A DNA stretch of 63,568 nt, counting the filler, from Folioceros fuciformis (lineage: Eukaryota): assembly GCA_049999805.1 (NCBI GenBank). It is 6 parts of 5 records of this genome, joined end to end, with 100 filler letters (N's around TTAATTAATTAA, not from the genome) between each part and the next. Parts side by side here need not be neighbours in the genome. Positions count along the whole stretch, not along the records: positions 59,537 to 62,424 come from JBNGIO010006219.1; positions 62,525 to 63,568 come from JBNGIO010006290.1; 4 more parts are not named here. One strand, given 5' to 3'. This document shows, piece after piece, positions 4,719-63,568 of this stretch; position 1 is the first letter of the stretch; every line of letters begins with the position of its first letter. The notes under the pieces were generated by a model. It did no database searches. It was not told the origin of the DNA and saw only the letters and a list, made by a program, of their open reading frames with translations. Both the position numbers and the translations under genes were made by a program.

Positions 4719-4759
4719 CTTGATATCTTTGAGGGGACTCGGCAAAACTCTTCAAGCTC

Positions 4760-10420: not shown

Positions 10421-10624
10421 CATGTCTTCACAATTGCACTCAAGCTCCCACGAGCTCAAAGCAAGGAGCTATGCACTTGCACACAAACTCTCACAAGCTC
10501 AAGGCTAAGAGTTATACTTCTTGCACACGAGTTCTCACAAGCATAGAGCTAAAAACTATGCAATAAGACTTGGTCCTGCGTGGCTCATCTCACATGACAC
10601 TAGAACCTCTGAGCTCTGATACCA

Positions 10625-18647: not shown

Positions 18648-19419
18648 ATCGACCTGCCTACATTGGCAGTCTACGGGCAGCGCTCGACGCAATCCCCTCT
18701 TCGAATCGCAGCCGATTTCTTCACTCTGTTCAAACTTGAACAACAACAAACGCTTTCTACGGTTGTCGCGCGCGGAGTTATCTCCCAACCGGGTGGCCGC
18801 GAATTTCTTCAAGCTGATCAAACTTGAAGTAACGACCAATTTGCATTGTAAAACGATTTAAATAAAGGAAGACTGGAATGAACGGAGACAGGAATGAAAG
18901 AAGGCAGGACTGAAAGAAGGAGACACGAATAAAGAAAGAAGACAAGGAACTTTAGAGCACCAGCACGCATAATGATGTCTTTTGAGCTAGGGCATTGAAT
19001 GATCAAACAAAGCTTAGAAGAAGAGGAATGAACCCTAGGGTTTGTAGAGTTACATATGTAAAATTAGATTTATTTTTATTTATTTTAAAAAATAAGATAG
19101 GAAAATCTATCTACCCTTGAAGAAGAGAAAAATAATTATTGGGACATTAGGGACTAATTCCTTGAAGCCTAATGGCATGCCTACAGCATCTACCTACCAT
19201 TGGAGTTGCGGACACAACCTTTTCTATCAATGTTTTTGTCATGTATATAGCATTATCCAACTCTTGTATATGGCATTATCCAACTCTGGTATATGGCATT
19301 ATCCAACTCTTGTTGTAGAGCAATGGAAACCCTCTGCCAAGAGATAGCTATGACAATACACAAAGGAGGGCATAAAACCCTTTGCCAAGAGAACGTTGTA
19401 ACGATAGACAAAGGAGGGA

Positions 19420-32240: not shown

Positions 32241-35200
32241 ATGGATCAGCGGTTCTCCTTCTCGCCGGCGGACCTCGCCCGTGTGCAAAGCGTCCAGTTT
32301 GGGATTCTCAGTCCCGATGAAATTGTGAGGATGCTGTGGACTGCTGGGATGTTTGCGCAATGTCAGGGGTGGGAGTTGATGGCGCTGCGCCGGGACTGAC
32401 CATGTGTTGTGATTTGTGTTGGGTGCTGTGCGATTTGGATGGCTGCAGCGTCAGATGTCTGTGGTGAAAATTGAGAGCAGTGAGACATATGACAGGGGGA
32501 AGGCCAAGCCGGGGGGCCTCAGCGACCCGAAGCTGGGCACAATTGACCGGCTGGTGAAGTGCGAGACCTGTGCGGGGAGTATGGCAGAATGCCCTGGGCA
32601 TTTCGGGCATCTGGAGCTGGCCAAGCCTATGTTTCACATCGGGTTTTTGAAGACTGTGCTGACGATACTGCGTTGCGTGTGTTTCAACTGCTCGCGGTGC
32701 CTCGCGAACGAGGTAGGGTGTGGAATTGGGTTTAGGGCTTGGGCGTGGGAGGTTTAGGTGGTACGGGAGTGACTGACGAGGGGTTTGGTCGGGTTTGCCA
32801 GGACGATCACCGGTTCAAGGTGGCCAAAAAGATTCGGAACCCGAAGCACAGGATGAAAAGGGTTTTGGATTGCTGTAAGACCAAGACTAAGTGCGAGGGG
32901 GGAGACGAGAATGAGGAGGAGCTGGGCGCGGATGATACAGAGAAAAAGAAGCGGCATGGGGGGTGTGGGGCGCAGCAGCCTAAGATTATCATTGATGGGA
33001 TGAAAATTGTGGCGGAGTTTAAGCCCAGTAAAAGGAAGAATGACCAGGACCAGGACCAGTACATGCCGGAGCCAGCTGAGAGGAAGTCGCATCTCAGTGC
33101 AGAGAAGGTGGTTGATAGTTTTGTTTCTGTAGCTGGTGGGAGCTAGAGGGCAAAACAGCAGGGTGCTAATACGGTGAGCTCTGTGGAGCAGGTGCTGAGC
33201 ATTCTCAAACGGATAACCGATGAGGACTGCATGTTGCTTGGGCTCAACCCTAAGTATGCCCGTCCCGACTGGTTGATTCTGCAAGTGTTGCCAATCCCGC
33301 CACCTCCTGTGAGGCCGTCTGTCATGATGGACAGCTCTGCAAGAAGTGAGGTGAGGGTCTGAGCATAACATGCGTTGTCTGTTGTCTTGACCTCCTCGGT
33401 TTTCTGGATATGAAGGAGTCTCAAGTCTGCTGCTGATTTCTGTCGTGGGTCTCCTCTAGGATGATCTGACTCACCAATTGGCCATGATCATTCGTCATAA
33501 CAATAACCTCAAAAAGCAAGAGCAGAATGGGGCTCCCACTCACATCATCAATGAGTTTGCGCAGCTGCTGCAGTTTCACATTGCAACTTACTTTGACAAT
33601 GACTTGCCTGGCCAACCACGGGTATGTCTTTCAGATTGAGGAATAGTGCAACTGCGTTTTGCCTACTTGATTAGTAGCCTTGCCAGGTTCTCGAAATGGT
33701 TGATACCATGGCAAGCTCTCTTCCTGCAGGCCACCCAAAGATCTGGGAGGCCCATCAAATCCATCTGTCAACGACTGAAAGCAAAGGAAGGCCGCATCAG
33801 AGGTAATCTAATGGGGAAAAGGGTTGACTTTTCAGCCCGAACAGTCATTACTCCGGATCCAAACATCAACATCGATGAGCTTGGAGTTCCTTGGAGTATT
33901 GCCCTCAATTTGACATATCCAGAGACGGTGACACCCTACAACATCGAGAGGTAACAGATTATTCAACGCTCTGCTCATTTACTGGGTGGCATGCGAGTGG
34001 GATTTCTCACACGTTCTTGCCAGGTTGAAGGAGCTTGTGGAATATGGTCCTCATCCCCCTCCTGGGAAGACAGGGGCGAAGTACATTATTCGAGAGGATG
34101 GGCAACGACTTGACCTCCGGTTTCTCAAAAAAAGCAGTGATCGTCATTTAGAGTTGGGTTACAAGGTTGAGAGGCATCTACAGGACGGTGACCTTGTGCT
34201 CTTCAACCGTCAGCCCAGTCTCCATAAGATGTCCATCATGGGTCACAAGATACTCATCATGCCTTATTCGACCTTCCGGCTCAATCTGTCTGTCACATCC
34301 CCCTACAATGCCGATTTTGATGGGGACGAGATGAATATGCATGTCCCTCAATCATTTGAGACTCGAGCGGAGGTTTTAGAGTTGATGATGGTGCCTAAGT
34401 GCATTGTTTCCCCACAGTCGAACAGGCCAGTCATTGGGATTGTGCAGGACACGCTATTAGGATGTCGAAAGATCACCAAAAGAGATACCTTTATTGAGAA
34501 AGTGAGTCTTAATATTTTTTGGGGTTTGCTTGGATGTGCTTTCAAGACACTTACATCAGTTCTCGGTGTGTTTTCCAGGACGTTTTCATGAATATTTTGA
34601 TGTGGTGGGAGGATTTTGATGGCAAGATCCCAACTCCCACCATTCTGAAGCCAAAACCCTTGTGGACGGGGAAACAGGTTTTTGGGCTAATTATCCCAAA
34701 GCAGATCAACCTCATGAGGCAGGCACAGTGGCATCCAGACGCGGAGGTTGGAGATCTATCTGTAGGTGACACCATTGTTCGAATTGAAAGGGGAGAGCTT
34801 TTGGCAGGCATTCTCTGCAAGAAGACCCTTGGAACATCCACTGGAAGTTTGATTCACGTAATCTGGTGAGCATGATGCTCCTTGCATTCCCATCTTGCTT
34901 ATTGCATTGTTTTCATGTGTGCTCATGATGGTTTTTTTTAAGTTTTTGACATCAATTGTGCGGTTTGGCACATGTCAGGGAGGAAGTGGGGCCAGATGCA
35001 GCTCGGAAGTTTTTAGGTCATACACAGTGGTTGGTAAACTACTGGCTGTTGCAGCAAGGATTCAGCATTGGCATTGGAGATACGATTGCAGATTCTTCCA
35101 CCATGGAGAAGATCAATGAGACTATTGCAAAGGCCAAGAATGAAGTGAAGGAGCTCATTAAGCAGGCACAGGAAAAGCAGCTGGAAGCCCAACCTGGTCG

Positions 35201-38200
35201 TTCAATGATGGAGTCCTTCGAAAATCGTGTGAATCAGGTGAGAAATTGATATATTTTCGAACAATGTCTCATGTCTGAACACGGTTGTGTTGTTCGTGAG
35301 CACTAATCGAACACGCTGTTTTGCAGGTGCTCAATAAGGCTCGTGATGAAGCTGGTAATAGTGCTCAGCGTAGCTTGTCCGAGAGCAATAACGTCAAAGC
35401 TATGGTGACAGCAGGTTCAAAGGGTTCCTTCATTAACATATCTCAAATGATTGCCTGTGTGGGGCAACAAAATGTTGAAGGAAAGCGGATACCATACGGA
35501 TTTGTGGACAGGACCCTTCCACACTTCACAAAGGACGACTATGGTCCAGAGAGTCGCGGCTTTGTTGAGAATTCGTACTTGAGAGGGCTGACACCCCAGG
35601 AATTCTTTTTCCATGCCATGGGAGGAAGGGAGGGTCTTATTGACACTGCAGTGAAAACATCGGAGACAGGATACATCCAAAGGCGTCTAGTGAAGGCCAT
35701 GGAGGATGTTATGGTGAAGTATGATGGAACAGTGAGGAATTCACTGGGTGATGTCATACAATTTCTGTATGGGGAAGATGGTATGGATTCAGTGTGGATT
35801 GAATCTCAGAAGCTTGACTCTATGAAGATGAAGATGAAAGAGTTTGACAGAGTCTACAAGTTTGAGATGGACAGTGATTCGTGGAACCCTGACTACATGT
35901 CATCAGAGGCTGCAGAAGATATCAAGACAATACCAGAGTTTCGTAATGTCTTTGAAGCTGAAGTTCAAAAACTGTTGACAGACCGAAGGCAGCTTGGATT
36001 GGAGATTGCTCCTTCTGGGGATTCTATGTGGCCACTTCCTGTGAATCTCAAGCGTTTGCTTTGGAATGCCCAAAAGATTTTTAAGGTGGATTTCAAAAAG
36101 CCATCAGATATGCATCCAATGGAAATTGTAGAAGCTGTTGACAAGCTCCAAGAACGGTTGAAGGTGGTTTCAGGGGATGATCCAATCAGCACAGAGGCTC
36201 AGAAGAATTCCACCCTGTTTTTCAATTGCTTGCTAAGGAGCACGCTGGCTAGCAAGCGAGTGTTAAAAGAGTGGAGGTTGACTAAAGAAGCGTTTGAGTG
36301 GGTTATTGGAGAGATCGAAGCACGTTTTCTGCAGTCGCTGGTTGCTCCTGGAGAGATGATTGGTTGTGTTGCTGCTCAGTCGATTGGTGAGCCAGCGACA
36401 CAAATGACTCTGAATACTTTTCACTATGCTGGTGTCAGTGCGAAGAATGTTACCCTGGGAGTGCCAAGGTTGAGGGAGATTATAAATGTTGCCAAGAAGA
36501 CCAAGACTCCATCTTTATCTGTCTATTTGAGGCCTGAGGTGAACAAGGAGAAAGAGAAAGCTAAGAATGTGCAGTGTGCTCTCGAGTACACAACTTTGCG
36601 TAGTGTAACACAGGCCACGGAGATCTGGTATGATCCAGACCCAATGAGCACCATAATTGATGAAGACATAGAGTTTGTCCGGTCATACTATGAAATGCCA
36701 GATGAGGATGTGGCACCTGAGAAGATATCGCCATGGCTCCTGAGAGTTCAATTAAACAGGGAGATGATGGTTGACAAGAAACTGAGTATGGCTGATATTG
36801 CAGAGAAGATCAATATAGAGTTTGACGATGATTTGGCCTGCATCTTCAACGATGACAATGCAGAAAAGCTGATTCTACGAATCAGAATAATGAATGATGA
36901 AGCACCCAAGGGTGAAACACCAGAGCGAAGTGAGGATGATGTCTTCCTCAAGAAGATCGAAAGCAACATGCTCACAGAAATGGCTCTCCGTGGCATCCCT
37001 GATATTAGAAAAGTTTTTATAAGGGAGACAAAAAAGAACAAGTTTGATGAAATTCAGGGATTTAAACCAGAAACGGAATGGATGCTGGATACAGAGGGGG
37101 TGAACATGTTGGCGGTTATGTGTCATGAGGATGTTGACTCCACCAGGACCACAAGCAATCATCTCATTGAGGTGATTGAAGTACTTGGCATTGAGGCAGT
37201 ACGGCAAGCTCTGTTGAAAGAGCTTAGAGACGTTATATCTTTTGATGGATCTTACGTCAACTACCGGCACTTGGCTATATTGTGTGACATAATGACTTAC
37301 CGTGGCCATCTTATGGCAATCACAAGGCATGGTATCAACCGCAACGATACAGGTCCGATGATGCGATGTTCTTTTGAGGAGACAGTGGACATTCTGCTGG
37401 ATGCTGCAGTTTATGCTGAGTCTGACCAGCTCAGGGGCGTGACAGAAAATATTATGCTTGGGCAGTTAGCACCCATTGGGACAGGTGATTTTGGTCTACT
37501 GCTCAAGGAGAACATGTTGCAGCATGCCATAGAGTTGCAACTGCCAAGCTACCTGGAGGGTCTAGAGTTTGGCATGACTCCTGCACGGTCGCCAATGATC
37601 GGCACACCTCACCATGATATCACGATGTCCCCAAGTTATCTCCTGAGTCCCGGCATTCGGTCCTCACCCCACTCTGATGCTCAGTTTTCACCTTACGTTT
37701 CTGGCATGCAGTTCTCCCCTCAGAGCCCTGGATACAGTCCAGCTTCCCCTGGCTACAGTCCGACCTCCCCTGGATATAGTCCTACTTCTCCTGGTTACAG
37801 TCCCACTTCACCGGGCTACAGTCCCACATCTCCTGGTTATAGCCCTACCTCCCCTTCGTATAGTCCCACTTCTCCTTCGTACAGTCCCACTTCTCCTACG
37901 TACAGCCCCACTTCCCCATCTTACAGTCCTACATCCCCGCGGTACAGTCCAACCTCTCCAGCCTATTCTCCAACAAGCCCATCTTACTCCCCAACCTCCC
38001 CGAGTTACAGTCCCACATCACCGAGTTATAGTCCAAGTTCTCCTGCGTACAGTCCGACCTCTCCAAGTTACAGCCCAACCTCTCCAGCTTACAGTCCTAC
38101 ATCACCGACTTACAGTCCAACCTCTCCAGCTTACAGTTACAGTCCAACTTCTCCTGGCTACAGTCCAACTTCACCAAGCTACAGTCCAACATCACCTGGC

Positions 38201-38869
38201 TACAGTCCTGCTTCCCCCGTCTACTCTCCAAGCAGTCCCAGATATTCGCCTTCAAGCCCAGCGTATAGTCCCACGTCACCAAGTTACAGGTAATGTATCG
38301 CCAAGCAGCATTGTTAAGTGGTTGTTTATCACATGTGGAATCGTCACGGTAATCCAGTAAGCTCCGTGGGTCACGTGCTGAATATTATGTTACTGTGTGC
38401 AGTCCGACGTCTCCATCATATTCTCCAACATCTCCCTCTTACTCACCCACCAGCCCTTCTTACAGCCCGGCTGCTCCATCTCTGACCCCTACCAGGTATG
38501 CGCACCTTCGGATTTACTTTCACTTTTGCTTTGTGCTTCTGCTCTCCGTTTAAGGCATGTCCTGTGTGATCGTTGTAAGCGGGAAACCTTTCTTTTGTGC
38601 AGTCCCTCGTACTCGCCATCCACACTTGGTTACAGCCCGACAGCGCAACATCCGTACAGGTATTACTCAGGGTTCACACAGTTTTCAGCTTGAATGTGCG
38701 GTTCTTTGTGTGCTCTGTCAAGATAACGTGAATTTCTAACTTCTGTCTCGTTGGAAATTACAGCCCTACTACGGGAGGATACTCACCGTCAACCCCAAAT
38801 TCTGGATATTCACCATCCTCTAATCAGTTCACACCGACGTATGGAAAAGATGACAAGGCCAATCCCTGA
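32241..38869 (+). CDS. NRPB1: DNA-directed RNA polymerase II largest subunit (multi-exon)
   Basis: Starts [28 protein letters not shown] zinc site, NADFDGD active site, ~35 YSPTSPS-type heptads. Last exons 38403-38495, 38603-38659, 38764-38869. Confidence 0.98.
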
Positions 38870-53193: not shown

Positions 53194-54188
53194 NNNNNNN
53201 NNNNNNNNNNNNNNNNNNNNNNNNNNNNNNNNNNNNNTTAATTAATTAANNNNNNNNNNNNNNNNNNNNNNNNNNNNNNNNNNNNNNNNNNNNCTTAGCG
53301 AGTAATGTCGTTTCGCATGGTTTAATTTCCAGGTTATATTATATGCCTAAATAGTGATGTATCGTAACACCCCCTCTTAAACCAGAAACGAAACGGCCAG
53401 GAGATAGGGCACGCGCCGCCACACTATGTGGATGAGGGGATGTGAAGTGCGCGACAACGGGTGGTGGAGCATGGACGCTATCTCGAAAGAGTTGCCACGC
53501 ATGGCACGAAAGAATGAGTGGAGTAGGAGGCCAGCGGGCTGTGAGCACGGAGGTGTGGCGGACTCACAGATCTGGGCGAGCACGCGGGGAAGATACCCAC
53601 GCCGCGAAGCTGCAAGTTCCATTTCGCGCGTTTCCCCGAATGCTGCGTTTGTGCAGAGCAGTAGGAAGTTGTGCATGTGACCGATTCACTGATCCAGACT
53701 GTGTATCCGCGGGGCGCGCACTAGGGAGGCCTGTGCGCTGCGGGAGCTGCAGGTAGCATACCGCACGCGCCTGCCCCAGAGTCCAGAAATTTCAGTTCTT
53801 TTCTTTTGTTTGTGCTGGATGGTGAGCGGATCAGGCCCGTGACTTGGCTCCTGATCTTGGGTCGCTTGTGTGCAGGCCATACGCACCATAGGTTGCTGCT
53901 GGGTCTTAGCAACATGTAGACCAGATGCTTAGATCTCCTTGATGCTTCATCCGTCTGGCTGGTGATTGTTGGCTGCAGGCGGGCATAATAACTCGCCCTT
54001 TAATGACCAATGATGTCCAGTCGCATACGTTCACCTAGGTTTGACTAATCAGCATAGCTGTGCTCCCTCGTATGACAGGTGATTGTGGGAGCAGGGCTGT
54101 GGGGTCTGCAGGGGAAATATTAGGCATCAGCTAGGGCAGCCGTCTTCAGGTAACATGCTAATTTCCCCCTCTCAGTCCCACGGCCCTT

Positions 54189-57100
54189 TCATCTATCAAA
54201 GTAAGCGGAGTAGTCGCTAAGGCCAAGCCCCCTTATATGTAAATAGTGGGAAAGCTTGGGCAGTCCTTTTGTGAAAATATCTGCTGTGTTTGCTTCAGTA
54301 CTCACATGATCAACTTTGATGATGCCTCTGGACACCAGGTCTCGTATGTAGTGGTGGTGTACTTCGATATGCTTTGTACGAGCATGGAAAGTTGGTCTGG
54401 AAACAAGATCCAAAGCTGAGGTGTTGTCGCGCAAGATCACCGTAGGATCTGGCTGTGGGTGATTAAGACCTGTTAGAAAACTTCTCTCCCATTCTGCTTC
54501 CTTAGCTGCTTCGGTTAGTGATTTGTATTCAGCTTCAGTAGAGCTGAGAGCAATGGTTGACTGTTTTTTGCTGCTCCAGGTAACAGCTGCTGAAGCAAGG
54601 AGAAAACAGTATGAGGAGATGCTTCGTCTTGAATCGGAATCTGACGCCCAGTCAGCGTCTGAATAGCCAGATAAGGTAAGCCTCTTCTCTCCACTCCTTC
54701 TGTACGTGAGGCCATAATTTAACGTGCCTTGAAGATAACGGAAGATCCGTTTCACTGCTGTCCAGTGTGCTCTTCCAGGGCACTCAAGGAATTGTGATAC
54801 TGTACTAACGGAGTATTGTATGTCAGGTCTTGTCCAATTGGCGACGAACAGCAGGCTGCCCACTGCGTGCCTATAAGGTACACCTTCCATGTCTCTAAGT
54901 TCATCTGGGGTCTGTGGGCTTTGCTGACGAGTTAGCTTAGTACCCACTGCATATGGGGTTGTCACAGGTCTTGCCTGGTCTAGGTGGAACTTGCGTAGGA
55001 TTTCAGTGATGTATTTTCTCTGGTGTATATACATTATACCAGCATCACGCACACGTAGAAGTTGAATTCCTAGGCAGTACCTCAACTCTCCAATGTCTTT
55101 CATGTCAAATCGCTGATGGAGCTGCTACTTCACATCTGCTAATAGTGACTGATCGTTTGTGGCAAGGATTAAATCATCAACATAAAGGGCAAGCAACACA
55201 GTGGAAGATCCTCTCTTGAGCATGTACACATTGCTGTCAGCGGTGTTTTGAACGAAACCAATACTGATCAGTTCGACATGCATTGTGAGGTACCATACTC
55301 TGCCACTTTGTTTTAATCCATAAATGCATTTCAACAGCCTAAGCACTTGGTGTGGGTGTGCAGGGTCTTCATAGCCTTCAGGCTGAAACATGTACAACTC
55401 CTCTTCGAGGACTCCGTATAAGAAGGCAGTACAGACGTCCATCTGTTCAAGGTCGAGATCAAATTCTGTGGCATAAGCAAGAATCAAGCGAATTGATTGG
55501 CTGCGAACTACAGGTGAGAATGTTTCCTGGTAGTCCAGCCCTTCCACTTGAGTGAAGCCTCTTGCTACCAGTCGTGCTTTGAACCTAGCAACTTCACCTT
55601 TAGCATTAAGTTTTAACTTAAATGTCCATTTGCAGGATATGGCTTTCCTGCCTGGAGGGAGATCAGTGAGCGTCCAAGTTTTGTTCTTCACCAAGGACTG
55701 GTATTCTTCTTCAACTGCTTGCTTCCATTGCTCGCGTTGTGGACCATTAAATGCCTGAGTTAACGTGGTGGGTTCCTCAGGTATAGGAGAAGGTGGTCCA
55801 AGAGAGGCATGGGTCCGAAAATCAGTGGACACATAGGGAGGTTCCTTCCATTCAAATGGAGGAGGTCTGTGACGTGTGGAGCGACGGGGAGGATCAGCAG
55901 CTGGTTCAACCTGAGGTGGAGGCTGTGGAGGGTCAGCCATGGAAGGTGCTGCATCAGCGGGCCCTACTTCCCCCTCTGCATCCAATACAGGTTGATCAGG
56001 GGCTGCATCCAAGGTTTGCATTTCTCCTTCAACATTTGCATCTGCATTTGTCTCAAGGTTGTGAGTAGGAGCTAATGGCTGATGTCCTGTAGGCGCAGGA
56101 GGGGGAGCCATGGGTTCAGGCTCATCCTCATCAAGGGGAAAGTCAGCAAGTCGGTCAGCTGGGGCAGATGTAATGGGATCATCTGGTGGGCTGTCATCAA
56201 GAACAGGGCTGTGGAGCTCGACAAAGTGACACTCCTAGCAAGGACAATAGTGTCAGTGTCTTTGTTATACAGTTTGTAAGCTTTTGAATGTTCACTGTAG
56301 CCAACCAGGATAAGTGCCTCAGCACGGCTGTCTAGCTTATGTCTTTTCTCCTTAGGTATATAGGCGTACGCGCGGGATCCAAAGACTCGGAGGTGAAGGA
56401 GGCTGGGCTTCTTGTTCCAGAATACCTCAAATGGGGTTTTATTTGGAACGGTGCTGGTGAGGACGCGATTGAGAATGTATGTCGCTGTCACTATGGCCTC
56501 CGCCCAATAGCCTTGAGGTAAACCTGCCCACAGCAACATGCTCCTCGTCATAGACAATAAGGTTTGATTTTTCCTTTCTGATACTCCGTTTTGTTGAGGT
56601 GTGTAGGGCACTGTTGTCTGGTGCAATATCCCGTGAGATTGCAGCAGGTCTTGAAAGTTGGAGTTTACAAATTCAGTGCCATTGTCTGTCCTGAGAGTCT
56701 TCAGAAGTTGCCCAGATTGTCTTTGAGCAGTGGTAAGCCAGTCCTTGAAGAATCCAGAGGTGTCACTCTTGAATTCCATTGGAAATGTCCATGTGTAGCG
56801 GCTATAGTCATCAGTTATAGTGAAAAAATAGCGGGCACCTCCTAGTGAGGGCTCATGGACCTTGCCTGAGATGTCAGCATAGACTAACTCAAGGACTCTT
56901 GTGGCTCTCTGTGCAGGTGAAGTGGGGACTGGCAATTCCTTTTGCTTCGCGAGTATGCAGGGTTCACATACAGGTAATTGTTTGAAGCATTTAGGTAGGG
57001 GCTCACGATGGCATCCTAGGGTTGACATGTCTATTAGCTTAGACTGGTTGACGTGGCCCAAACGGGCATGCCAAAGCAAGGCCTGCTGTTCTTGGCTTAA

Positions 57101-58474
57101 GTTAGAGGATGAGGTTGAGTGAGTAGCCTCATTTAGCTCAGGTCCTGTACAGGTAATGTTCAGCCTGTACAGGTTGCTTGCGGGCAAGCCCTCAAAGGCA
57201 CATGTATGAGGGGATGACTGCCTGTAGAAACAGCAGTGTTCATGGTCTGCATGCATGTAGAACATGCGTTGACGCATGATTTGACTCATAGACATGAGAT
57301 TTTTGGCCATGCTTGGGACATAGATGACATCATCTAGGGTTAACTCTATGCCATCATGCAGTGTGAAGACACACGTGCCTCTACCCTGGATAGGTAAGCT
57401 TGACCTACTTTGTTCATCTGCAAGGAATACCTGACCTCCTGTTTGTGTCAGGTCTAGGATTTTGAAAAGTTCCTTTTTCTTGCAGATGTGGGCGGTGGCC
57501 CCCGAATCAAGATACCAGCAGGTGTCATCACTCCGAGTGCTGAACAGGCATACCGTAAGTATCTTCACAGGGGCCTTGGGGTCTGCTTTATTCTGCCTCA
57601 CTGCTACATTTGCTGTAGCCTTTGGCTGGCGCTGGGGCTCACCTGCCTTGCGTTTGCGGCATTCTCTTGCCCAGTGGCCAGGGAGGCCGCACCAGTTACA
57701 GCTGCCAGGGCGTTTGGCAGCATTAGAGGGTTCTCCCCTCTGTCTTTGTGCTGTGGGAGCTCGGAACCTTGCCTTGCCTTTGCGAAAGTTAGTAGCTAAT
57801 GCTTTCTCCCCTCTGTCCTTGGCAGCTGAGGAGAAAGTACGGCTCTGCTCCTCCTGGAACAGTGCACCGATCACCTCCTCCAGGGTGATGGTCACTGTCT
57901 GGCCAGAGGCAGCAGCTGCGGCACGTATGGGGCCATTTTGGCTTGTCACAAATGTCTGGTAGGAGGCAGGGAGACTGGTCAGGAGCTGGGCGATGGCGTC
58001 CACTTCTGACATCTTCTCTCCTGTCATGGCTGTAAGTTGAGCACGTAGGTGCCTAAACTTGCAGACGTGGGAGGCTACTTTGTCTCCCTCCTTCATTTTC
58101 AGAGAGTAGAACTCTTGCCTTACTGCACATAAGGTCATCATATTCTGGATTTTATAAGTCTTCTCTAACTGGTCCCATATGGCATGTGCAGATGTCAAGT
58201 ACTCCACATCAGGGACAAGGTCCGAGTCTAGTCCACCAATAATCAGCGCAACGGCAATGGCGTTGAACTGCTCCCATTTAGCAATCTCCTCTAGGGTTGG
58301 TGCAGGGCTACTGGACGGGTCTGGTTTAAGGTAAGTACCATCTACGGTGGTCCAGACTCCCCTGGCCAGCAAGGTGGCCTTCATTCTGACCCTCCAGACA
58401 TTATAGCCCTGCCCCTTAAACCTATCTTTTTCTTTGAGTTCAGAGGTGAACGTAGGTAAGCTACTGGATGCCAT
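54189..58474 (-). pseudogene. Copia D gag-pol with one frameshift (~56230) and one premature TAG (55125)
   Basis: CNWCGLPGHWAREC, YLDSGAT, WHARLGH, TDNGTEF, YVDDL, SDADWA, ADIFTK. Confidence 0.92.
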
Positions 58475-58596
58475 CGCTGCTTGTTGATTAGGATGCAGTG
58501 ATAGGTTTTGAAAACCACTAATGAGTGAGTTTAATTGTGCAGCAGTGAACACGAAGCTATGTAGCTATGTCACTACTGTCTCGCTACTACCTGTCC

Positions 58597-58725
58597 TTCT
58601 TTCTTACGTTGTGTTATCTCCAGCGAGACCTTGTTGGGCGCAGAGTTCAGGGGCCATCAAGAGTGATGGCTGCTGGATCCTGAGCCCAATTAAAGGTCTC
58701 GCCAGGGGTCACCGCAACATAAAGG
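58597..58725 (-). promoter_or_regulatory. Conserved rod-like RNA hairpin in Copia D leader
   Basis: 85/93 nt identical to 60653-60745; nested stems; function unknown. Confidence 0.75.
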
Positions 58726-58927
58726 TGTGTCGTTATGTGGCTACGAACCCTAAAGCTAATGTATAGTTAGGGTTTTTCTAACAGACGTGTCCCAAGCACA
58801 TGGAATGGTTTTCCAGGTGTACCAATGGAGGAGCACCAGTTGAGGCCTTCGTAATGAACTCAAGGTGCATCACGGCGGTTCAGATCTGGTGCTCTCAGTT
58901 GCTGCTACTCCCCTGCAGCGGAAGGGT

Positions 58928-59311
58928 CTAATGAAGGCTGTCTGATCTTGATGAAGTGGGTAAGCCCTCCAAGATTTGGCCCAAAAATTCTGAAATTTGT
59001 TGGGTACTTGTCTTGGCTTCATCAATTGGGGTGTGATTAACTTGAATGTCTGTGTCACAGCCTTCGGAGATGATCCTAGATGGAGCTTGGAAAGACAATA
59101 GGCTAGACAGCAATCTCTCCACGCGGCTGAGAATATTCTGTGATCTGTCAAGGATTTTTCTCAGCCCTTTTAGAGAATTGATGTCGGGTTTGTCTTTATG
59201 CCTTGCAGGTGCTCTGCGCGTCTTGGAATTCTGTTCTGCGCAGCAAACATGGCACATGGAGGCATGGGAATCATAGGCGCGATGCGCATCGGAGGGGCCT
59301 CCACATCGCAT
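58928..59311 (-). CDS. Candidate ORF0 upstream of gag in Copia D (127 aa)
   Basis: ATG-initiated, sense to gag; DINSLKGLRKILDR resembles DIPEIDGAYRVLSDR of Copia E ORF0. Confidence 0.45.
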   Translation of the reverse strand: MRCGGPSDAHRAYDSHASMCHVCCAEQNSKTRRAPARHKDKPDINSLKGLRKILDRSQNILSRVERLLSSLLSFQAPSRIISEGCDTDIQVNHTPIDEAKTSTQQISEFLGQILEGLPTSSRSDSLH

Positions 59312-59893
59312 AGGTGAAAAACACCGTAGACTGGGGAGGGTTTGCCACCGGGCGCTTGCCCTTCTAGGGGAGCGCGCAGCCTCAAAAGGGATGTGCGCCG
59401 TGTGTACAGGTGGTTGACTTCCGGCAGAGTATTCCCNNNNNNNNNNNNNNNNNNNNNNNNNNNNNNNNNNNNNNNNNNNNTTAATTAATTAANNNNNNNN
59501 NNNNNNNNNNNNNNNNNNNNNNNNNNNNNNNNNNNNTTTTGTATATAAACACTTTTGTTGATATTAATTGAACAATCTTTATGCACAACTTGGTGAGTAG
59601 TGTGAGATTCTCTAATGTTTAACATGGTATCAGAGCAATCTACGTTTGGATATTTATGTCTGCAAAAATTTCTATATAGTAACATGTATGCGGGGTCGAA
59701 GAGAAGATGCGGACACAAAATCCATTAGTCACATCATGTGGTTTCTGGATCTTGTGTCTACATTTTCTCTCCCACCCTGCGATACAACGTCAGTACTATG
59801 TTACAATTTACAGTTTGCATGACAATATCAGAAACTAGAAATTCCGCTGTGCACATCTGCTTGCGAAAGAGCAGCAGATGATGAAAGTTGAAG

Positions 59894-60418
59894 ATGCCTC
59901 GACGGAGACGATCTCGGGTCGAGCCTCCAACTTTTGTACCCTGCAGCCATTCCAATTTCAGTGAACGTGTGGGATTAGTAAGGCCTGTTCGGGATTATAG
60001 AACAAGACAGGACAGAATCCCACACATCCTCTCTCGATCAAATTGCCGTACGCATGTTTTAGGCCAACCCAAAGTCAAGCCAAAGAATGCGTTCGACCTC
60101 GGATCAACAGACATACCTGAAATTGATGGGGCTTACAGAGTGCTCAGTGACAGGTTGACAACTACACAATCAGTGTTGCTGACGGCTCTCTCTCGCCAGA
60201 GTGAGATGCAAATTGCTCGGCATCAAGAAAATCTGGCAGCAATCGACCTTTTCTTGCGAATACAAACCACTCTGTTGAAGGAAGTGCGAGATTTAACAGA
60301 ATTGATGCAGGAGTTTACCTCTAATTCTGGAGCGCCTTCTACAGTCACAGATTTGCTGCAGATGCTTTCTCCCAATCGCGAGAAGTTCAGATCGAAGGAG
60401 TCGCCGGCGGCGCTGTAG
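59894..60418 (+). CDS. ORF0 upstream of gag in Copia E (174 aa, basic N-terminus plus coiled-coil)
   Basis: Intact ORF MPRRRRSRVE...; clear homologue at 62724. Confidence 0.72.
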   Translation: MPRRRRSRVEPPTFVPCSHSNFSERVGLVRPVRDYRTRQDRIPHILSRSNCRTHVLGQPKVKPKNAFDLGSTDIPEIDGAYRVLSDRLTTTQSVLLTALSRQSEMQIARHQENLAAIDLFLRIQTTLLKEVRDLTELMQEFTSNSGAPSTVTDLLQMLSPNREKFRSKESPAAL

Positions 60419-60640
60419 CAGTCGGCCAAGTCTCACTGCACCGCCAGATCCGAAATGTCGTCTGCTGGAATTTTGGCGCGGCCAAGTCCTGGCTGGGATC
60501 TGTGACCCATCATAGCTGCTGAGATTCCAAGAGGCGTTGCCGTTGCGCTTGCCGGCTGTGCTCTGTCGTATGGACGCCCCAACTTTGAAGCGTCGCGACT
60601 TTCGGACCTGCAACATTAGATGCCTGTAGAGCACTCAACC

Positions 60641-60765
60641 TACGTTGTAATTACCCCTGGCGAGACCTTCAATTGGGCTCAGGATCCAGCAGCCATCACG
60701 TTGGATGACCCCTGAATTATGTGCCCAACAAGGTCTCGCTGGAGACAATACACCGTAAGAAAGAA
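60641..60765 (+). promoter_or_regulatory. Conserved rod-like RNA hairpin in Copia E leader
   Basis: CUGGCGAGACCUU/AAGGUCUCGCUGG, UUGGGC/GCCCAA and UCAGG/CCUGA stems; shared with Copia D. Confidence 0.75.
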
Positions 60766-60794
60766 CAACCACGATTTCAAGCACATAACTTTCA

Positions 60795-60886
60795 GCAACC
60801 TAATCCTCCTTGTCCAAGCACTTACTGAAGAAGGTCTTGCGCGGCTTGATCACCCGCCTTGATCCCTTCTTCCCTAAGTAGGTTGC
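60795..60886 (+). promoter_or_regulatory. Stem-loop with palindromic UGAUCA loop just upstream of gag AUG (DIS-like)
   Basis: GCAACCUA/UAGGUUGC, GAAGAAGG/CCUUCUUC and GCGG/CCGC stems; loop CU-UGAUCA-C. Confidence 0.65.
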
Positions 60887-60887
60887 C

Positions 60888-62424
60888 ATGGCAACTGGAA
60901 GCACAGGGGGAAGCGCTGCTGGAAGTAGCAGCGGAGCGGGATCTGTTCCCATTCTTCCTGCAGTCCTTGTCATACCTCAGCCTTCTTATTCTGTTGAATT
61001 CAAGGAGAGGGACAGGTTTAATGGCTTGAAATTCGAAGGCTGGAAGGTGCGCATGACAGCTGCCCTGCAAGCGCGACACGTTTGGGGAGTTGTTACTGGC
61101 ACGCTCAAAGAACCAGCATCATCTGCTACACAAGACGAAAAGGACAAGTGGGCGAACCTGAATTACGCCGCACGCGCCGTCTTAATCAGCAGGCTGGACG
61201 AATCCCTCCTCGCCGATGTTGCTTTTCTCACCAAGGCTGAAGAGATCTGGACTCTTCTTACACAGACATATGAGGCTAAGAACATTCTTACCATGTGTGC
61301 TGTTCGGGGCGAACTGTTTTCCTTACGTCTTAAGGAAGGCGACAAGGTTTCTCCTTTTGTCATTCGCTTCAGACAACTGCGAGCTCAATTAATCAACCTT
61401 GGTTCACAGTTCCCTGAGCTTGATGCCGTTAGCCAGCTGCTGACAAGTCTGCCTCCAAGCTATCAAACATTCGTTTCCAGCTATGGAGCCACTGTCCGAG
61501 CTGCTGATGCTGCACGAGCTGCAGGACAACCCACAAATATAAATCTCGCAGACGTGATAGGAGCTTTGCTTCAAGAGGAACAAAGCAGGCTCACGTCTAC
61601 TTACCATGGTGGCAAGACAAAAACTGATAAGGTTCTGTTCACCAAAGGCAAACCTGCCAAACAAAGACCTTTCCCTGGAGCAGTTTCTAAACCTGGCTCC
61701 ACAAAACGGACTGGAACTTGCAACTGGTGCGGTATCCAGGGCCACTGGGAAAGAGAATGTCGGAAAAAGAAAGCTGGTGAGGCACGCAAAGCTGAGAAGC
61801 CTACCCGACAGGCTGAAGCACATGTTGCTGCCACCAAGGACCGTCCTTCCACTTCGACACCTCACAAGCAACCTGTAGTAATGACGGTTTGCTTCGCTTC
61901 GTCTGCTTTTCGTCCTTCCTCACACACATGGTACCTGGACTCGGGGGCCACGTCTCACATCTGTAATGCCAAGTCCATGTTCTGTCATTATAGATCGTCC
62001 ACTACCACTAACAAGGTTTTGTTGGGTGATGAAGTGACTCGTACAGGTCTGAGCATCCAAGGACATGGTACCTGCGTGTTTCGCTTGAATGATGGCTCTC
62101 TCCTGCACCTAGAAAACGTGCTGCATGTCCCTCACATGGCTAAGAATCTGATATCAGTCAGCCAGTTAATGTCTCTACGGCTCTACGACCTTTTGTTCAC
62201 TTCGTCTAGCTGTCAGCTTACAAAGCGAGGGGGAGATAGAAAGGTCATAGCCACTGGTATTTTAGTGCATGACTTGTATCAACTCAACTTGACATGTTTA
62301 CCTGAGGGCATGGCACATGTTGCACAACTTTCTCAAGCTGCAGAGGCTAGTTTATGGCATGCTAGACTAGGTCATGCTAATCGGGCCAAACTGATAAAAA
62401 TGTCCAACCTCACATGTTACCGAG
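60888..62424 (+). CDS. Copia E Gag-Pol polyprotein (partial, open to gap)
   Basis: KERDRFNG..W, CNWCGIQGHWEREC, YLDSGAT, LWHARLGH; no stops over >500 codons. Confidence 0.93.
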
Positions 62425-62723
62425 NNNNNNNNNNNNNNNNNNNNNNNNNNNNNNNNNNNNNNNNNNNNTTAATTAATTAANNNNNNNNNNNNNNNNNNNN
62501 NNNNNNNNNNNNNNNNNNNNNNNNTTCTATCCTGGTGTATTAGATGTCTGTAGAAAGGAGTACGTTCTCTTAATACAAAGTCTCTTCTACTCTTACACAT
62601 CTGCATCAGCGATGGGTTTTTAACCGAGATATTGCACGATAGAAAATGCAAACGCAAAATTTCCGCCGCGCGGATCTGGCTGCTTTACGGCAGCAGGTTC
62701 GACTGTTTTAAATCCGGTTGAAG

Positions 62724-63135
62724 ATGACTCGACGGGGACGATCTCGCGTCGAGCGATCCACATCTCCCACCTGCCATCAATACAGAGAGAGGAATCAAAT
62801 TTTCAGGATTCGAGAGGGGTCGGATCTGGAGGAGACTTTTCAATCCAGTGTCCCTGATCTACCTGAAATTGTTGGAGCATATAGGGTGCTCAACAATCGG
62901 CTTACCACAACGGAAACAGTACTTCTTGCTACTCTTTCTCGGCAGAGCGAGATTCACACTGCCCGGCATCAGGAATTTCTGGAAGCCATTGATCATCTCC
63001 TGCGCAGGCAAACCTTCGCTATTAAAGGGCGTTCAGCAACTTACAGATCTGGTCACAGATTTGCAGCGGCGAGTTGCCTTCAAATTCGAAGTCCTAGCCT
63101 CTGAATGCTCTGGCTTCGCCGCGCGAGATGCCTAG
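62724..63135 (+). pseudogene. ORF0 of Copia F (frameshift near 63015)
   Basis: MTRRGRSRVE...DLPEIVGAYRVLNNRLTTTETVLLATLSRQSEIHTARHQE; continues LLKGVQQLTDLV in the next frame, like E's LLKEVRDLTELM. Confidence 0.72.
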
Positions 63136-63365
63136 ATCGCAACCGTCGCCAGATGCCTGCTGAAGGGGCGCGTCGGCTGCTTGCGTGGCATCGTCGATTC
63201 CTCCCGCCGCAGCGTCGGTGTGGGTGCCCTATGCGCCTCCTCCCGGTTGCCTGCGCCCTTTCACTCCAGCCGCGAAGCGCTGGGTCTCGGCCCCAATCGA
63301 CAACCATCTATGTCGGTTGACACCTCTTGATTGCCTCGCTCCTTCGCCTTGCAATCCTTGCAATC

Positions 63366-63441
63366 CTGACCCATTTTTTTGAAGATGACCCTGTACCAGC
63401 CTGATCACCTGGATTAGCGTCTTCTTCACAAAGCAGGTCAG
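63366..63441 (+). promoter_or_regulatory. DIS-like stem-loop upstream of gag AUG in Copia F
   Basis: CUGACC/GGUCAG, GAAGAUG/CGUCUUC and CCAG/CUGG stems; loop CC-UGAUCA-C. Confidence 0.65.
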
Positions 63442-63568
63442 CATGGCCACAGGAACAGGCGGAGGAGGAGGAACATGAGGAAGTGCAGTAGGTGGTGGCG
63501 GAGGGGGAGGAGGTGTAGTCGCCCTCCCGCTCCCTGCCGTACCTGTGATTCCTCAGCCATCCTACTCT

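Follow-up and report, generated by a model that had tools for sequence, protein, structure and literature searches.

Two Ty1/copia retrotransposons, designated E and F, were found in a stretch of 63,568 nucleotides (nt) from Folioceros fuciformis (GenBank assembly GCA_049999805.1; the whole stretch analysed is referred to here as the window). Each carries a hairpin in its RNA leader that stops 1 nt before the AUG of gag and presents the self-complementary hexamer UGAUCA in a 9-nt apical loop. The hairpin region forms an island of conservation in an otherwise diverged leader, and its pairing is preserved between the two elements, which suggests that it is probably a functional RNA element. A cis-acting signal for dimerisation and packaging of the genomic RNA is the likeliest single role, though this assignment is tentative and unproven.

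The selection of genomic RNA by plant long terminal repeat (LTR) retrotransposons, along with its pairing and packaging, has barely been explored in the literature, and a short, well-defined hairpin with a self-pairing loop provides a concrete object for the study of RNA pairing in plant Copia elements. A second question concerns the translation of gag, which in E lies behind a leader of 1251 nt that includes 21 upstream AUGs and a conserved extra open reading frame (ORF), designated ORF0. Even if the hairpin proved to serve splicing or translation, it would still mark the site that decides gag expression in these elements. Practical importance is limited, as the family is a single small one of low copy number.

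The hairpins and their conservation between E and F

The stem-loop of E spans 60795 to 60886 and that of F 63366 to 63441, both on the forward strand. In E, the basal stem pairs GCAACCTA (60795-60802) with TAGGTTGC (60879-60886), the middle stem of 8 bp pairs GAAGAAGG (60827-60834) with CCTTCTTC (60865-60872), and the apical stem, GCGG (60841-60844) with CCGC (60854-60857), closes the loop CTTGATCAC (RNA CUUGAUCAC; 60845-60853), in which UGAUCA occupies 60847-60852. A single C (60887) separates the hairpin from the ATG at 60888. The corresponding parts of F are a basal stem of CTGACC (63366-63371) with GGTCAG (63436-63441), a middle stem of GAAGA (63381-63385) with TCTTCTTC (63420-63427), an apical stem of CCAG (63396-63399) with CTGG (63409-63412), and the loop CCTGATCAC (RNA CCUGAUCAC; 63400-63408) with UGAUCA at 63402-63407. 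Here too one C (63442) precedes the ATG (63443). With the middle stem of E written as GAAGAAGG/CCUUCUUC and that of F as GAAGAUGA/UCUUCUUC, 7 of the 8 pairs are formed in the same register.

All of the letters quoted for the two hairpins in an earlier note on this DNA lie where it had placed them. Its description of a 9-nt loop composed of 2 nt, UGAUCA and 1 nt applies to E and F alike, as does that of a basal stem ending 1 nt before the gag AUG, and the two apical-stem changes that it reported, G-C to C-G and G-C to A-U, are both real. The GAAGA/UCUUC stem is likewise present in both, but extends to 8 bp in E and not 5. The attribution to plant Copia is correct, given the Pfam domains of E and an RPB1 gene that places the host among the land plants.

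An exact primer-binding site at 59625-59636 places the E hairpin within the RNA leader, between that site and the gag AUG at 60888. Each AUG is preceded at a short distance by a stop in the same frame (in E, a TAG 9 nt upstream of the gag ATG), so that the hairpin is not part of the Gag coding sequence.

The apical and middle stems of both elements were predicted by RNAfold in every context tried, with z-scores against shuffled sequences of about -2.8 to -3.6. A 106-nt segment of E folds at -29.8 kcal/mol (z -2.84) and a 96-nt segment of F at -27.3 kcal/mol (z -2.97), and in each case 2 of 200 shuffles were equally good. In contexts of 319 to 582 nt, the apical pairs have predicted probabilities of 0.86-0.99 and the loop bases are 0.85-1.0 unpaired. 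The basal stem of E forms in the minimum-energy fold of the 92- and 143-nt contexts, and is replaced in the 106-nt fold by a local ACUUACU/AGUAGGU pairing. UGAUCA is predicted to be unpaired over its whole length with a probability of 0.78 for E and 0.68 for F, values at the 99.3rd and 98.5th percentiles of all 6-mers in the respective leaders. Among six-base palindromes, its exposure ranks first of 19 in the E leader and second of 15 in the F leader.

The elements have diverged extensively outside this region. E and F are identical at 54 of 92 positions of the hairpin (59%) and at 39 of 61 in its core (64%), compared with 84 of 212 in the leader just upstream (40%, about noise); 42 matches in 68 positions against a background of 0.396 gives a binomial P of 1.8e-4. 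At synonymous sites of ORF0, the proportion of differences (pS) is 0.665, near saturation, and neutral sequence would thus be expected to be close to random between E and F.

Pairing within the hairpin appears to have been preserved across this divergence. When the 22 pairs of E are mapped onto F, 17 remain pairable (11 unchanged, 2 with a change on one side and 4 with changes on both) and 5 are broken. These counts were made with a custom script, since the MAFFT alignment is wrong at the first apical pair and in the basal strands. Random placing of the same 26 substitutions leaves 11.5 +/- 2.1 pairable pairs (P 0.009), and use of the observed substitution spectrum as the null gives P 0.019, the null means being 11.5-12.2 across both. 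Double changes considered alone give P 0.03 and 0.025 under the two nulls. In the reverse mapping, 18 of the 20 pairs of F fit E, 5 of them by a double change, and RNAalifold identifies 13 pairs shared by E and F, 3 with double changes. The loop retains 8 of 9 bases and the entire palindrome, for which P is 0.066 alone; loop and pairing jointly give P 4e-4 for a combination chosen post hoc. Random mutation of E seldom leaves such a structure intact: a 4-bp stem with a palindromic loop of 9 nt survives in the best fold of just 6 of 5000 mutants (0.12%). Over the window, a covariance model derived from the two hairpins scores E at 67.6 bits, F at 70.8 and the opposite strand of F at 23.7. Taken together, the conserved island and the preserved pairing make it quite likely that the region functions as RNA.

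Searches for further copies covered several collections. For the E Gag-protease (Gag-PR) protein, 67 pattern matches in metagenome contigs and 4 in viral contigs yielded 0 confirmed relatives in either set. A pattern of the hairpin flanks, with loop and apical stem left free, gave 0 matches in viral and prokaryote-genome contigs. Rfam assigned no family to the hairpin or to a conserved 113-nt leader block described below in a search over 53294-63568. The other Copia elements of the window (gag starts near 4719 and 10423, minus strand) have no comparable hairpin before the AUG. Of six sequencing runs listed, two contain the stretch, both of them DNA runs, and four were examined over 60300-61300. 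There, a single contig in each of runs X1 and X2 covers 60776-60877 at unique-flank depth, and no second copy of the hairpin was seen at >=80% likeness; this survey was confined to the E type and read from contigs, which drop rare variants. Run X4, presumed to be RNA, gave 0 contigs over this interval. Gag sequence from about 60931 onward is common to further X1 and X2 contigs, one of which (1522 nt in X1, 1618 nt in X2) departs from E further upstream. Its Gag start is glycine-rich and unlike those of E and F, and 30 upstream letters are visible. The shared gag with a differing upstream part indicates that a further relative of E and F exists in the sample.

Candidate roles of the hairpin

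As a dimerisation and packaging signal, the hairpin would be a selectively kept stem-loop in the long genomic-RNA leader of a small land-plant Ty1/copia lineage. It would display the self-complementary UGAUCA in an exposed 9-nt loop, with a base that takes the leader into pairing as far as position -2 relative to the gag AUG. Two genomic RNAs may kiss through these loops, and the zinc-knuckle part of Gag could then turn the two hairpins into an extended duplex. A closed hairpin would also mask the approach to the AUG, such that the same RNA is either packaged or translated. Consistent with this proposal are the location between primer-binding site and gag, the CCHC knuckle in the Gag of E, the high predicted exposure of the hexamer among the leader palindromes, a closing stem that has changed between E and F while the hexamer has not, and a predicted gain in stability of 11.4 kcal/mol for the extended homodimer over two monomers, the same for E and F.

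Several observations weigh against this role. The UGAUCA duplex is weak, at -5.0 kcal/mol compared with -10.9 for GCGCGC and -7.9 for GUGCAC of human immunodeficiency virus type 1 (HIV-1), the loop flanks are pyrimidines (CU/C in E, CC/C in F), and the central step is A-U. The same letters also fit a branch point, a pyrimidine tract and an AG. The opposite strand folds about equally well (z -3.36 / -2.30 for the two strands of E, -3.57 / -4.03 for those of F), and folding energy could not assign the strand of the hairpin in either element. Of 5000 random mutants of E, 36% fold as stably as F (P 0.36). The basal 5' strands of E and F are not aligned with each other. The covariation comes from two sequences only, with a loop that is common to both by descent, and every test was picked after the data had been seen. 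The apical G-C to A-U double change involves two paired CpGs, for which deamination of both arms would keep pairing in 3 of 4 outcomes without selection. The covariance model found no third copy of the hairpin in the window, the next matches having E >= 0.2, and D, a related element with its gag start near 58474 on the minus strand, lacks a hairpin of this kind ahead of gag.

The bare motif, defined as a 9-nt loop with a palindrome in the 2 + 6 + 1 layout above 4 Watson-Crick pairs, is also common by chance, with 12 instances on both strands of the window compared with 7.5 +/- 2.7 in 30 shuffles. The excess over chance is the conservation at a homologous place in E and F, and not the bare motif. 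One of the 12 instances also holds UGAUCA. This hairpin, at 18807-18829 on the minus strand, has a 9-nt loop of UU, UGAUCA and G closed by CUUCAAG/CUUGAAG, lies in an unrelated 603-codon ORF without a Pfam family, and is treated as a chance instance. A diverged tandem copy of the motif 60 nt downstream (approximately 18740-18770) forms no hairpin.

Control of translation was considered as a first alternative. The hairpin might govern ribosome access to the gag AUG, by landing, shunt, internal entry or a brake, with the palindrome incidental. With 21 upstream ATGs over 1251 nt in E and 9 over 898 nt in F, the AUG is beyond the reach of ordinary scanning, and the structure that adjoins it may therefore serve ribosome entry or shunting, or gate initiation. 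The AUG context is good in both elements (G or A at -3, G at +4), the basal stem stops 1 nt short of the AUG in each, and a short upstream ORF ends 35-36 nt before the base of the hairpin (60756-60758 in E, 63328-63330 in F). Hairpin-dependent shunting exists in plant pararetroviruses. However, known shunts have a stop-to-stem distance of a few nucleotides, which the approximately 35 nt found here exceeds, and a hairpin of -25 kcal/mol adjoining the AUG is likelier to inhibit initiation than to promote it. Translational control also leaves unexplained why an exposed palindrome has been kept beside a changing closing stem, and as the main role it appears unlikely.

The conserved letters could alternatively be splicing signals, with YUGAUC of the loop as the branch point, the CU-rich 3' arm as the pyrimidine tract and a YAG|G acceptor 6 nt before the AUG. 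Splicing would then remove a leader intron or all of ORF0 and render gag translatable, and the hairpin would be incidental or would damp the acceptor to spare genomic RNA. In E, the candidate 3' splice site, as read from the sequence, spans 60864-60881 on the forward strand, with the pyrimidine tract CCCTTCTTCCCT followed by AAG-TAG|G. The signals in E are CUUGAUC (A60849), CCCUUCUUCCCU and UAG|G (60879-60882), and those in F are CCUGAUC (A63404), UCUUCUUCAC and CAG|G (63434-63437); in each case 32 nt separate the A from the AG. Another CUUGAUC (60858-60864) occurs in E, 19 nt before the AG. A scan for GTRAG identified a candidate 5' splice site, GTAAGAAAGAA, at the end of the 113-nt block (60755-60765, forward strand; in D at 58607, minus strand). 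C|GUAAGAAAGAA is common to E and D where the block ends, and a YAG before the AUG follows 127 nt downstream in E and 131 nt in D. The six introns read in the RPB1 gene of the host are short, mostly <125 nt by our own reading and thus similar in size to the candidate leader intron, and run from GT to CAG, and the leader is, as noted, not scannable.

Against these points, 0 GTRAG were found in the F leader, position -1 of the candidate donor is C but G in all six host introns read, and the E acceptor is UAG where the host introns have CAG in 6 of 6. The candidate acceptor of D lacks a pyrimidine tract. Complementarity of the 5' arm would not be needed by splicing signals, and its preservation is left unexplained. 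None of the DNA contigs in the runs skips the hairpin segment, the only joints seen lying inside gag. Splicing as the explanation of the conserved letters is accordingly regarded as doubtful.

It may also be that the hairpin has no dedicated function, and that it reflects residual ancestry beside a constrained gag start, the palindrome and the pairing having arisen by chance aided by CpG decay. The small sample and the post hoc choice of tests, the frequency of the bare motif and its hexamer in an unrelated ORF, the stability of randomly mutated E and the lack of the hairpin in D all agree with this explanation. It does not readily account for a hairpin that is 59-64% identical while the rest of the leader has decayed to 40% and ORF0 has reached a pS of 0.665, for the 17 of 22 pairs preserved where 11.5-12.2 would be expected, or for the rarity with which random mutants of E keep the stem and palindromic loop (0.12%). 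Absence of function is rather improbable.

Dimerisation, translation and splicing would be mutually compatible, as an intronic hairpin would restrict the packaging signal to unspliced RNA. In such an arrangement, resembling that of retroviruses, the kissing-loop hairpin would lie in a short intron of the leader, bounded by GUAAGAAAGAA and by YAG|G just ahead of the gag AUG. The signal for dimerisation and packaging would be confined to unspliced RNA, while the spliced, hairpin-free RNA would be the gag messenger, and the long leader would have its own gene, ORF0. This combination, proposed from the sequence, has a low probability. If true, it would be the first defined DIS-like (dimerisation initiation site) element of plant Copia, with translated and packaged RNA sorted by splicing.

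A role at the DNA level, with the TGATCA palindrome or inverted repeat as a protein-binding site or downstream promoter element, would agree with the equal foldability of both strands and with the two CTTGATC copies 13 nt apart in E, but is very improbable, given that we know of no factor for a TGATCA site and that a protein-binding site would require neither outer stems of 8 bp and 6-8 bp nor compensating changes in the closing stem.

Leader features and genomic setting

The E leader extends 1251 nt from the primer-binding site to gag, ORF0 contributing to its 21 upstream ATGs, and the F leader 898 nt. Approximately 50 nt past the primer-binding site of E lies a very stable, near-perfect hairpin of about 100 nt, HP1 (59685-59786, forward strand), with a predicted energy of -53 kcal/mol and a z-score of -8.75, equalled by 0 of 200 shuffles. 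In Rfam, HP1 obtained only weak matches to small RNA and microRNA-precursor families, far under the gathering scores, and F has no counterpart (z -1.0).

ORF0 of E is a frame of 174 codons between the primer-binding site and gag (59894-60418, forward strand). The ORF0 of F (62724-63132, forward strand) is frameshifted after about 63014, and D possibly holds one too (59434-58931, minus strand). The predicted products begin with MPRRRRSRVE in E and MTRRGRSRVE in F and share the conserved core PEI.GAYRVL..RLTTT..VLL..LSRQSE. Over 51 codons, 36 residues are identical and the ratio of nonsynonymous to synonymous substitution rates (dN/dS) is 0.11. ORF0 matches no Pfam family and has no homologue among proteins of 95-305 residues; in the protein atlas, a single feature match at 0.75 was the only one obtained. 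Extra upstream ORFs are known generally in plant LTR retrotransposons, according to the portion of PMC7264820 available.

The 113-nt block (60653-60765, forward strand) is 90% identical to D 58597-58709 (minus strand) and contains a near-perfect 86-nt hairpin at 60657-60742. It folds at -43.7 kcal/mol (z -5.46) in E and -52.4 kcal/mol (z -6.44) in D, with 29 consensus pairs between them, 0 of which vary. The block occurs on three more contigs of runs X1 and X2 and was not found in F, and a 22-mer taken from it had 0 matches in viral, metagenome and prokaryote-genome contigs. It is itself a candidate cis signal, better conserved than the E/F hairpin. The sequence TGGCGAGACC (60656-60665), at one stage taken for a primer-binding site, was dropped once the canonical site at 59625 had been found. 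A further motif, ATTAGATGYCTGTAGAR, recurs at 60612-60632 in E, after ORF0 and just before the 113-nt block, and at 62543-62562 in F, directly after a sequence resembling a primer-binding site; F has a looser copy at 63150-63166, after ORF0.

The window consists of separate contigs joined by linkers of the form N44-TTAATTAATTAA-N44, with N runs at positions including 27564, 47935, 53194, 59437 and 62425. D, E and F are hence not necessarily neighbours in the genome. E occupies a contig of 2888 nt (59537-62424) and F the following contig, from 62525 to the end of the window, both in forward orientation. The 5' LTR end of E (59537-59624, forward strand; terminal TGTTTAACA) directly precedes the primer-binding site, and only 88 nt of it are visible because the contig begins there. 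The LTR pairs of E and F cannot be seen because the contigs are cut. The primer-binding site itself, TGGTATCAGAGC (59625-59636, forward strand), is of the initiator methionine tRNA (tRNA-iMet) type, an exact match located right after ...AACA, and this 12-mer recurs after the LTR of a further Copia element in the window (10613-10624, minus strand). No tRNA genes were found in the window.

E and F are Ty1/copia elements. The gag-protease-pre-integrase frame of E (60888-62424, forward strand) is truncated by the contig end. It includes a CCHC zinc knuckle in Gag and matches the Pfam families Retrotran_gag_2 (3.2e-27) and Pol_BBD, a beta-barrel domain on the protease side (6.2e-22), while gag_pre-integrs, at 26.6 bits, is just below the cut-off of 28.4. 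In a search of 5.8 billion proteins from which 8000 candidates were scored, the nearest relatives of E Gag-PR are 58% and 35% identical; among those candidates, 64 proteins match at E <= 1e-10 and named angiosperm Copia proteins are <=29% identical. Gag-PR of D shares only 45% identity with that of E. The gag of F begins at 63443 and is truncated by the end of the window at 63568 (forward strand). Its 42 codons can be aligned with the Gag start of E, and codon 12 is an in-frame TGA (63476-63478). A degenerate sequence resembling a primer-binding site, TGGTGTATTAGATG (62533-62546, forward strand), judged by eye, is 8 nt from the start of the contig. With the codon-12 stop in gag, the frameshift in ORF0 and the degenerate primer-binding site, F looks dead.

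The RPB1 gene at 33460-38854 includes an array of C-terminal domain heptad repeats (21-nt period, 37691-38289) and short GT...CAG introns. Its product shares 95% identity with a transcriptome protein in EukProt and 86-88% with proteins of seed plants, which identifies the host as a land plant, though not a well-sampled angiosperm. Over 60300-61300, nearly all differences between the window and run X3, which derives from the sample of X1 and X2, are C>T (at 72 places) or G>A (at 63). This pattern fits a bisulfite-type converted library, which could serve to read the methylation of these elements, and the X3 differences were left out of the variation counts.

Comparison with known systems

The plant 3' splice-site consensus comprises a branch point YURAY, a spacing of 18-40 nt, a pyrimidine tract and YAG|G. 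The order and spacing of these signals are reproduced in E (UUGAU with A60849; UAG at 60879-60881) and in F (CUGAU with A63404; CAG at 63434-63436). Unlike plant nuclear 3' splice sites, F lacks a matching donor, and the complementary 5' arm is no part of a splice signal.

Among plant Copia elements, packaging signal (PSI) and DIS motifs have been proposed for barley BARE-1 and BARE-2 (Tanskanen et al. 2007, as cited in the accessible part of PMC4350172). E and F resemble these in being plant Copia elements with proposed packaging or dimerisation motifs in the leader, a likeness drawn from that citation and not from the motifs themselves. A kissing loop is not described in the portion of the BARE RNA-pools paper at hand (PMC3735527), dimerisation is not mentioned in the corresponding portion of a 2025 review of the plant LTR-retrotransposon life cycle, and a paper on Tos17 mentions PSI only in passing in the text available. 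In the literature searched, PSI and DIS motifs of plant Copia were thus met only as an indirect mention for BARE.

For Ty1, a member of the same element superfamily, dimerisation of the genomic RNA has been ascribed to motifs at the 5' end of the RNA together with Gag acting as a chaperone (excerpts of PMC5454406 and PMC6844567). The 5' untranslated region of Ty1 is 53 nt and the motifs lie largely inside GAG. They comprise the palindromes PAL1-PAL3, with proposed SL1a-SL3a kissing loops in which AUUCUGU pairs with ACAGAAU (PMC5454406, in the same excerpts). Whereas that model involves two different complementary loops, E and F each have one palindromic loop upstream of the AUG.

In retroviruses, the dimerisation site is typically a palindrome of six nucleotides displayed by the apical loop of a leader hairpin, in some cases close to gag; purines on the flanks and G-C pairs at the centre matter for HIV-1, and the gag start region takes part in long-range pairing in mouse mammary tumour virus (MMTV) and also in Mason-Pfizer monkey virus (MPMV) (sections of a review of retroviral dimerisation). 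The E and F hairpins differ from the retroviral sites listed there in abutting the AUG, in the 1251-nt leader with an extra ORF in E, and in being predicted structures of a Ty1/copia element with a plant host. They resemble SL1 of HIV-1 and HIV-2, L3 of the avian sarcoma-leukosis viruses (ASLV), Pal II of MMTV and Pal SL of MPMV in being hairpins between primer-binding site and gag with a self-complementary apical hexanucleotide, and MMTV and MPMV further in that the gag start region is engaged in pairing.

The HIV-1 DIS, to which the earlier note had compared the hairpins, has a 9-nt loop in the 2 + 6 + 1 layout. The likeness holds for the leader hairpin, the self-complementary loop hexamer and this layout, and fails for the purine flanks and central G-C pairs, as the loop flanks of E and F are pyrimidines and UGAUCA has only 2 G-C pairs. 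The hexamer of HIV-2 also has a central A-U step, so that the A-U step in UGAUCA does not exclude a dimerisation signal. As for the retroviral DIS, the extended duplex predicted for E and F is favoured over two separate hairpins.

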